Assembly: GCA_016840425.1 (NCBI GenBank)
Contig: JAEOSI010000010.1
Coordinates: 1-22,919, forward strand
Source of the DNA: Candidatus Wukongarchaeum yapensis
GTDB lineage: Archaea > Asgardarchaeota > Wukongarchaeia > Wukongarchaeales > Wukongarchaeaceae
Length of the DNA stretch: 22,919 nt
Direction: 5' to 3'
Shown here: positions 3,616 through 4,605 of the stretch, one piece after another
Layout: every line of letters starts with the position of its first letter
How positions within the stretch are numbered: the stretch's first letter is position 1
Program-made: the position numbers and the translations under genes
Notes under the pieces: model-generated
The model's database searches: none
What the model was told of the DNA's origin: nothing
Seen by the model: the letters and a program-made list of their open reading frames with translations, nothing else

Positions 3616-4605
3616 TTAGGTTTCTGGACTGTCTGATATCCCGTTCTCAGTTATATAAAAGACACATTCACGTTCCGGTAAGATTGGACTGTCAAATATT
3701 CTAGCTATTCGAGCCGTCCCTCTAGATTTTCTTAAAAGAATACGATGGGTTGGACGATGGGCCCATGCCAATCCAAGAGCGGGTTCTTCGATTTTTCCAT
3801 AAACAACTGCATCAGGATTCATGAGAACTTGGTTTGTTACTAAAATGGCTATGTCATAGATATCTGCATATCTTTGTAGAATTTCTCCGTGACGCATTAA
3901 AAGTTGTTGACGGGCTGGAATCGCCTCTTTTCCTGTGAATTCAGCGCGAAAATGAGAAGCTATAGAGTCTATTATGAGGAGTTTTATGTTGCGCTCTTTA
4001 AAGTATCTTTTTGCTTCGGAAATAAGCAAGGTTAAATGGTTAGTGTTGTATGCTCTTGAAACAAGGATTTTTGATAAAATTTCTTTTGAGTCTAGGTTGG
4101 CCGCAAGGGCCATTTGCACTATTCTTCCAGGGAAAAATGTTCCTTCGGTATCAATAAAATAAGCACTTCCCTCCAAACCTCCTTCTTCTTGAGGTATTTG
4201 GGCGTTTATACATAATTGAAAGCAAAGCTGAGTTTTTCCCGTCCCATAAGCTCCTGCTATCTCTGTGATCGACCCCGTCCAGACTCCACCCGCAAGAATT
4301 TCGTCGAAGCTTGAAGAACCAGTGGTTATGCTCTGTATTCTTTTTTCTTCTTCTAAAAGATCAGAAGCTAGAATAGGCTTTATTTCTAAAGCATTTCTGG
4401 CTTCTCCAATTATTTTAAGAGCGGTTTTAATACCTATACCCATAACTTCTGTGAGAACTGCTGGAGATTCCGTAGCTAAAGCTTCGATGGTGACATAGCC
4501 TTCCTCGCGAGCTTTTTTAGCCATATTTTCTTCCATACTTGGAAGGTCTTCTATTGACCTTATATTTGGGTGACGTTCTCGTTTTTTAGCCAAAGTAACC
4601 ACCAA
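3616..4605 (-). CDS. radA: RadA/Rad51-family ATPase; a divergent paralog with RAD51-paralog-like motifs (would be auto-annotated radA)
   Basis: N-terminal HhH domain, Walker A GAYGTGKT, FIDTEGTF, Walker B LLIIDS, TNQV, C-terminal RIARIFDSP..PERECVFYITENGI. The true start may be the TTG at 4593 (MAKKRE). Confidence 0.9.
   Translation of the reverse strand: MVVTLAKKRERHPNIRSIEDLPSMEENMAKKAREEGYVTIEALATESPAVLTEVMGIGIKTALKIIGEARNALEIKPILASDLLEEEKRIQSITTGSSSFDEILAGGVWTGSITEIAGAYGTGKTQLCFQLCINAQIPQEEGGLEGSAYFIDTEGTFFPGRIVQMALAANLDSKEILSKILVSRAYNTNHLTLLISEAKRYFKERNIKLLIIDSIASHFRAEFTGKEAIPARQQLLMRHGEILQRYADIYDIAILVTNQVLMNPDAVVYGKIEEPALGLAWAHRPTHRILLRKSRGTARIARIFDSPILPERECVFYITENGISDSPET

Follow-up and report, generated by a model that had tools for sequence, protein, structure and literature searches.

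The gene at positions 3616-4605 of the window (the whole stretch of 22,919 nucleotides of Candidatus Wukongarchaeum yapensis DNA that was analysed) encodes a RadA paralog which is other than canonical RadA, RadB or RAD51C. It belongs to a conserved and real family of archaeal proteins, called here the PALG family, which by sequence comparison stands closer to the four eukaryotic paralogs RAD51B, RAD51C, RAD51D and XRCC3 than the other sampled archaeal proteins with an N-terminal domain. That the family is the pre-duplication ortholog of these four is judged probable from its sequences. The fuller explanation, towards which the analysis leans slightly, is that RadA would have been duplicated in an ancestor shared by Wukongarchaeia and Heimdallarchaeia, that the duplicate would have stayed single copy alongside canonical RadA as the archaeal ortholog of the one gene later duplicated into RAD51B, RAD51C, RAD51D and XRCC3, and that it is most likely a recombination mediator. 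The preliminary description of this DNA had proposed a prokaryotic relative of the eukaryotic recombination mediators, a proposal which both the motifs and the trees support.

Gene layout and remodelled motifs

The host, Ca. Wukongarchaeum yapensis As_085, has been described with a GC content of 38% and 277 contigs of 2.16 Mb (bioRxiv 2020.10.19.343400), and the assembly holds 2,156,567 bases in its 277 contigs. The start of the gene is probably the TTG at 4593, which would give a protein of 325 aa, since upstream of this codon the reading frame is not maintained in the ortholog of a congeneric genome (G001). The sequence GGTGG precedes the TTG in both genes. The features of the gene are as follows:

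3616-4605, minus strand: open reading frame of the RadA paralog (Wukong/Heimdall PALG family), 329 aa as listed
4594-4603, minus strand: GGTGG, Shine-Dalgarno-like, ahead of the TTG (4591-4593), kept in G001; putative ribosome-binding role
4396-4551, minus strand: N-terminal HhH domain, aa 19-70, Pfam PF14520 (HHH_5), E 8e-9
4345-4380, minus strand: altered polymerisation linker PxxA and helix, aa 76-87, with Pro77 for the FxxA Phe and Glu87 for the RadA Arg
4231-4254, minus strand: Walker A GAYGTGKT, aa 118-125, Lys124 intact, a small residue for the RadA/RAD51 Arg at 121
4144-4146, minus strand: catalytic Glu154, invariant
3946-3969, minus strand: end of Walker B and DSIASHFR, aa 213-220, with Ala216 as in eukaryotic paralogs
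3886-3933, minus strand: L1 loop and next helix, aa 225-240, Arg232/Gln233 retained, small residue at 240
3733-3783, minus strand: PALGxxW-HRP signature after L2, aa 275-291, Leu277 and Trp281 invariant, His283 kept
3685-3693, minus strand: DSP ATP-cap, aa 305-307, RadA-type

The retention of an N-terminal HhH domain, by which the preliminary description had set the protein apart from RadB, is borne out by the HHH_5 match, and the Pfam Rad51 core covers aa 88-325 of the 329-aa protein. The structure model (pLDDT 87) predicts a full RAD51/RadA fold. Among the NCBIfam models, the protein scores above the cut-off of PRK04301 (RadA; 364 bits vs 259), just below that of TIGR02236 (RadA; 343 bits vs 361) and far below that of TIGR02237 (RadB; 99 bits vs 172), and the database labels of PALG-family proteins are simply RadA.

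After L2, where RadA has P[IV]GG[HN], the window protein reads PALGLAW, as had been noticed earlier, within PALGLAWAHRPTHRILL (aa 275-291), which lies at exactly nt 3733-3783 as first described. The paralog motifs quoted in the preliminary description are right for the human sequences in the PDB, namely PALGESWGH and CTALELLEQE in RAD51C, PALGITWAN in XRCC3 and PALGRSWSFVPSTRILL in RAD51D; the equivalent segment of human RAD51B is AALGNTWSH. The motif is not due to chance, because all 120 best homologs have PALG[FLYH]AW[AG]HRP and none of them has the FxxA Phe. The master alignment shows Leu277 and Trp281 in 100% of the PALG family and of the RAD51B/C/D/XRCC3 samples, a frequency that is circular for RAD51C, since this set came from a metagenome pattern scan and was chosen by the motif itself, and that for RAD51B, RAD51D and XRCC3 comes from sets with no direct motif selection but with a seed sequence that had the motif. 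The two residues are found in 0% of 29 RadA, 5 RAD51/DMC1, 10 RadB, 3 RecA and 14 divergent Asgard RadA-like sequences, so that PALGxxW is indeed set apart from ordinary RadA. Since RecA, RadA, RAD51 and most RadB have GG there, ALGxxW is the derived state. The invariant Trp281 presumably corresponds to W305 of human RAD51C.

The Phe of the FxxA motif is needed by RadA and RAD51 for self-association. In agreement with the preliminary description, FxxA is replaced in the window protein by KPILASDLLEEE (nt 4345-4380; KPILAS linker), and the position of the Phe is occupied by Pro in 110 of the 120 best homologs and by Phe in none. Glu87 is also found in RAD51C, and Pro77 partly in RAD51B. The likeness of the Walker A region to RAD51C, which had been claimed as well, stands in part: the loss of Arg from GEFRTGKT is paralog-like, whereas the remainder is mostly common to ordinary RadA.

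The ATPase residues of the window protein are intact (Lys124, Glu154, Asp213), and the other retained RadA features include His283, Asp305, the L1 residues Arg220/Arg232/Gln233 and a largely RadA-like beta-3 edge. The changes from RadA comprise a remodelled post-L2 helix and the loss of Arg at 121 and usually at 226. The GGN contact with ssDNA phosphate is altered as in the paralogs, and so are the residues taken as the equivalents of R235 and R130 in human numbering, the former being mostly Lys in the PALG family. Position 216 is Thr/Ile in RadA and Ala in the PALG family, in the eukaryotic paralogs and also in RecA; Ala216 and a small residue at 240 are common among PALG-family members and in the four paralogs, and together may make room for Trp281. 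Asp305 is invariant in the family and is also the RadA residue, and Lys occupies this position in RecA, RadB and RAD51B/C/D; the family is without the lysine finger that RAD51B/C/D, and not XRCC3, have at the RAD51 D316 position.

Range, copy number and genomic context

When 400 Asgard genomes were searched by profile, 79 of the 85 other genomes of nine Wukong/Heimdallarchaeia families (assigned to these classes partly via tree position) each had a single match, and the 314 genomes of the remaining Asgard families, in which a very divergent member could lie below the threshold, had none. Likewise, ALGxxW outside the nine families was absent from about 90 Rad51-family matches of a 40-genome sample across the phylum. 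A GTDB-wide scan yielded 68 PALG-family loci, nearly all labelled Heimdall- or Hodarchaeota. A wider range, suggested by contigs labelled Bathy-, Thor- and Hermodarchaeota, was rejected, as their sequences nest among Heimdall/Hod and have neighbours in common; the submitter labels of L042, L044, L064 and L085 (Bathyarchaeia, Hermod-/Thorarchaeota) look wrong by the same nesting and neighbours. The viral contigs searched held no PALG-family member, RAD51C or RAD51. In genome G098 (L059/L311), a run of N at the 3' end of the PALG-family gene produces a spurious very long open frame.

Some members of a low-GC Kariarchaeaceae-type, probably pelagic (L124:1662-2615, L200:1468-2433, L303, L304), have PALGESWSH and NQM, letter for letter as in RAD51C. 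This exact match is probably secondary within the family, judging by the motif elsewhere, as most of the family reads PALG[FLY]AW. This identity of the pelagic motif would speak for a eukaryotic paralog having reached Asgard archaea by transfer, or for contamination. However, the family resembles RadA far more than it does any eukaryotic paralog, it is present on the complete chromosomes of Ca. Heimdallarchaeum aukensis and endolithica (PR6, PM71), it stands in an archaeal gene context as a single copy in nine families, and its subclades track the host groups, so that transfer or contamination is effectively refuted.

No repair gene is conserved beside the PALG-family gene, whose neighbours vary by order. 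The other genes noted in the window are the following:

2468-3565, minus strand: two-SIS-domain sugar isomerase (GlmS C-terminal-like), 50 bp downstream of the PALG-family gene
4972-6195, plus strand: SepCysS (Sep-tRNA:Cys-tRNA synthase), above NCBIfam cut-offs, divergent from the PALG-family gene
9772-10572 and 10711-12108: archaeal A24 prepilin peptidase and DUF711 protein
19008-20075, minus strand: 355-aa protein with a C-terminal double zinc ribbon and Pro/Glu-rich tandem repeats (periods 24, 84, 108 and 114 nt)

The order of SepCysS and the PALG-family gene is retained in G001. The isomerase is possibly co-transcribed with the PALG-family gene, and is not kept beside it in other orders. 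A promoter scan, of a kind ill-suited to archaea, gave chance level. In about 17 Hodarchaeales-type loci (L044, L055, L057 and about 15 others), the gene adjoins Vps4, a subunit of ESCRT-II (Vps25-type), ribosomal uS2 and RimK.

In line with the earlier reading, the host genome encodes separate canonical RadA proteins with FxxA and GGH, of which two were found (C41:532-1515 and C108:12827-13945); they share 58% identity with each other and 44% each with the window protein, which is hence an extra paralog. The genome also encodes a RadB-like protein (C119) and KaiC-like proteins, and searches for Swi5, Rad52 and BRC-repeat proteins, two of them (including that for Swi5) run without a positive control, gave no match in it. 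A GG-type RadA coexists in the other genomes examined that bear the PALG family.

Many lineage-specific divergent RadA-like paralogs are found in Asgard genomes (L226-L260), with up to 10 Rad51-family matches per genome, and ALGxxW is confined among them to the PALG family. RadA-like proteins of Heimdall/Kari (L220-L225, L283) have open frames of 420-460 aa with GGNIMGHW, and in two f14 genomes the highest-scoring RadA is apparently of this kind and present twice. Others (L231, L233) have FxxA and GG intact and no HhH domain match. A canonical RadA of 1,238 aa (P0121) is interrupted by a large intein just past its Walker A Lys, and an intein-bearing canonical RadA was the sole find of a search for longer proteins.

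Trees with the eukaryotic paralogs and with RadB

The trees, which are unrooted, were built in IQ-TREE under LG+C20+F+G by PMSF, with support given in pairs; their eukaryotic sequences are RAD51B, RAD51C, RAD51D, XRCC3 and 4-5 RAD51/DMC1. Against the PDB, the RAD51C set scored 425 bits to human RAD51C and at most 228 to anything else. The RAD51B, RAD51D, XRCC3 and few RAD51/DMC1 sequences were taken from protein searches, and their representatives were validated against the PDB.

Examined by phylogeny, as the preliminary description had proposed, the PALG family joins the eukaryotic paralogs in most trees, and forcing it into the canonical RadA clade of its own genome is rejected (AU p=0.0097). 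In the trees without RadB and RecA, the paralogs group singly with the family at 98/100 for RAD51C and 100/100 for XRCC3, RAD51B and RAD51D, and RAD51C and RAD51B together at 100/98. Removal of the PxxA, DSIA and PALG columns leaves the grouping with RAD51C at 99.7/99 and that with XRCC3 at 100/97. All four paralogs join the family at 99/99 in the presence of six long-branch Asgard decoys; in the tree with Asgard decoys the four form their own clade (100/99) with the family as sister, by which an orthology of the family to RAD51C specifically is ruled out. Used as control decoys, RadB alone is placed without resolution at the base of the PALG-family stem (68/49, branch 0.026) and RecA alone attaches elsewhere, so this stem is no general magnet for long branches. 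An origin of the paralogs from the RAD51/DMC1 stem was rejected (AU p 0.009-0.04).

Similarity measures agree in direction, by a small margin. The mean identity of the paralog families to the PALG family is 34.7, 31.3, 30.8 and 27.8%, that to RadA, in the same order, 32.2, 28.9, 28.5 and 25.2%, and that to RadB 26.3, 25.4, 24.3 and 23.4%, which leaves 2-3 points between PALG family and RadA. RAD51/DMC1 and RadB have higher identity to RadA than to the PALG family. The window protein itself is far more RadA-like overall, with 44.6% identity to RadA vs 28-35% to the paralogs. With a RAD51C profile, the PALG family reaches a median of 218 bits vs 184-198 for canonical RadA, and hhalign gives 476 vs 412. 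Searches of the PDB with the PALG segment ranked RadA/RAD51 above the paralogs, and were set aside as a test because similarity rank reflects evolutionary rate.

The main competitor in these trees is RadB. Three of the four paralog families still group with the PALG family when RadB is allowed to compete (XRCC3 99/99, RAD51B 100/100, RAD51D 100/100), and RAD51C alone is ambiguous (70/47). With all four paralogs, the outcome hinges on the RadB sample. With KHR-type RadB only, the PALG family and the paralogs group at 82/80; with mixed RadB in which Asgard RadB-likes are present, the free trees place RadB with the paralogs (82/96; 68/62); when long Asgard RadB-likes are the sole RadB sample, they come to lie within the paralogs (100/99), which become paraphyletic. 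RecA also falls inside the paralogs and breaks their clade with the PALG family (39%). Such placement of the longest RadB-likes and of RecA is as expected under long-branch attraction. Fixed-tree AU tests of the two groupings end in a statistical tie (AU 0.46-0.59), with lnL differences of -2.5 (LG), +2.3 (C20) and +1.8 (C60), and a partition of this difference by site rate was inconsistent across models. The classical topology was recovered in a first FastTree, which contained RecA, RadB and numerous long branches. When every signature column was dropped with long decoys present, the PALG family and the paralogs grouped in 22% of bootstraps, and one long decoy slipped in.

It is to be weighed whether the eukaryotic paralogs descend from RadB, in RAD-alpha/RAD-beta terms, with the PALG family as a RadA duplicate that converged on them through a similar accessory role. 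This is the published model (PMC3637515), and the free trees with RadB (68-82% bootstrap), the AU tie and the Lys at position 305 common to RadB and RAD51B/C/D, the strongest single site for the RadB grouping, speak for it. It requires, however, a separate gain of Leu277, Trp281 and the small residue 240 as well as loss of the FxxA Phe, whereas RadB retains GG and is without the N-terminal domain. Together with the preference of three paralog families for the PALG family in single tests and the dependence on RadB sample and long branches, this makes the RadB origin unlikely.

Even the RadB-favouring tree keeps the PALG family, the paralogs and RadB on one side of a branch (90/97), and another RadB sampling does so at 100/98. 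These values also suit a still older history, in which the PALG family is the slow survivor of an ancestral RAD-beta and has kept the N-terminal domain, RadB represents a truncated, fast-evolving derivative, and the gene was lost elsewhere; that most trees place the family outside the RadA sampled from Sulfolobales, haloarchaea and Asgard archaea fits this as well. Such a history needs loss in all other archaea (no match in the 314 other Asgard genomes, and GTDB-wide matches of Heimdall-type only) and a reversion of RadB to GG, and is considered very improbable. The duplication of RadA in the Wukong/Heimdall ancestor remains the preferred reading.

Predicted role and comparison with known systems

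In the RAD51 filament, the FxxA linker of each protomer enters a pocket on its neighbour, and RAD51 docks on XRCC3, from which the paralogs chain onward until XRCC2, without an N-terminal domain, ends the filament (PMC7618403). Read against these RAD51 and XRCC3-complex structures (PMC7618403), the receiving side of the PALG protein, with its RadA-like ATP site and beta-3 edge, could receive the FxxA linker from the RadA protomer at a filament end, and the Pro that replaces the donor Phe would leave it no Phe to donate into a RadA pocket. On this reading, the protein would bind both ssDNA and ATP and serve to nucleate or cap the RadA filament rather than perform strand exchange of its own, and may form a short homo-oligomer, a forerunner of the X3-C-D chain. 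Granted the paralog ancestry, a mediator function is held to be decidedly probable by motif content and by analogy. A predicted complex of the window protein with the C108 RadA scored 0.34 (best control 0.00), relative to a mark attained by 58 of the 80 solved pairs and 2 of the 110 mismatched ones, with 7 solved pairs and both mismatches at 0.60 or below. The modelled runs of this complex agree in at least 69% of contacts, with a partner pLDDT of at least 76. This weak signal may mirror the RAD51/RadA interfaces that are already solved, and it is not counted as evidence.

The same ancestry would also allow a specialised active recombinase, related to RadA as DMC1 is to RAD51, which forms its own PxxA filaments, with the mediator role arising later in eukaryotes. 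The catalytic residues, His283, Asp305, Arg220/Arg232/Gln233 of L1 and the N-terminal domain are all retained, the identity to RadA is 44.6%, conservation is strong (dN/dS 0.15 between the window gene and its G001 ortholog), and the best structural matches of the model are RAD51/DMC1 filaments. The fold searches (Z 35.0 for RAD51, 32.4 for RAD51C, 31.3 for XRCC3 and 26.1 for RadB) are not discriminating for function. With its trans-acting His/Asp kept and PRK04301 passed, the window protein could still polymerise. No member of the family, however, has the Phe required for self-association, the GGN contact and the R235 and R130 equivalents are changed as in the paralogs, and a GG-type RadA stands alongside in the genomes examined. 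An active recombinase is hence a doubtful reading, and the mediator remains the preferred one.

The paralogs are conventionally derived from the RadB lineage after an ancient RadA/RadB split (PMC3637515), a model which leaves unexplained the RadA-type N-terminal domain of the four paralogs, absent in RadB. A slow, single-copy archaeal sister with this domain, if true, would call for a revision of that model and make the specialisation of mediators older than eukaryotes. The whole of that proposition, by which the four paralogs come from the RadA duplicate of Wukongarchaeia and Heimdallarchaeia and not from RadB, the split between recombinase and capping is pre-eukaryotic, and one homo-oligomer would do the work of BCDX2 and the XRCC3 complex, is evenly balanced between being right and wrong. 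If true, the gene would be a eukaryotic-signature gene restricted to those Asgard classes that have been proposed as the closest relatives of eukaryotes, and a shared derived marker tying eukaryotes to Wukongarchaeia and Heimdallarchaeia. It would also offer a one-gene, bacterially expressible system for the ancestral function of the paralogs, which are breast and ovarian cancer and Fanconi anemia genes, and for the role of the invariant Trp.

No literature linking the PALG family to the RAD51 paralogs was found in a search from which subscription papers and most supplements were outside. Paralogs go unmentioned in Ferlez et al., as does RAD51 in the main text of Eme 2023, Kay 2025, Tobiasson 2025 and the structure-based ESP preprint. 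In the accessible portion of Matsuo et al. (2025), a RadA duplication with two clades is described in Heimdallarchaea/Gerdarchaea, from trees that used only RAD51 and DMC1 with long branches pruned and in which the paralog link is absent (PMC12722695); one subclade of their second clade may be the PALG family. An ESP catalog holds an Asgard structural cluster whose dominant eukaryotic member is RAD51D, in a single passing mention of a 2026 preprint (PMC13734099). This cluster resembles the present case in that an Asgard protein is grouped with a RAD51 paralog by structure clustering, and differs in being a mention without sequence, motif, distribution or tree, so that, compared by description only, it is a possible partial precedent. 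The same preprint lists a Swi5/Sae3-like Asgard structural cluster, possibly another pre-eukaryotic mediator (PMC13734099).

Among the known systems, archaeal RadB (TIGR02237) is likewise a non-FxxA RadA paralog and presumed mediator, but it is without the N-terminal domain, mostly GG, and KHR in euryarchaeal types where the window protein has DSP. Archaeal RadA (TIGR02236/PRK04301) shares the domain layout, ATPase residues, His/Asp ATP cap, L1 and 44% identity, whereas the PALG family is without the FxxA Phe, has ALGxxW for GG[HN] and coexists with canonical RadA. RAD51B/C/D/XRCC3 of the BCDX2 and XRCC3 complexes differ from the PALG family as four genes against one, to none of which it is singly orthologous and to which its identity is 28-35%, and the family keeps the RadA-like L1, HRP and Asp305 and is without the RAD51C insertion. 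With these paralogs it nevertheless has in common ALGxxW, DS[IV]A, the small residue 240, the N-terminal domain and a non-Phe linker with an xALELL-like helix, and they are its nearest neighbours in most trees.
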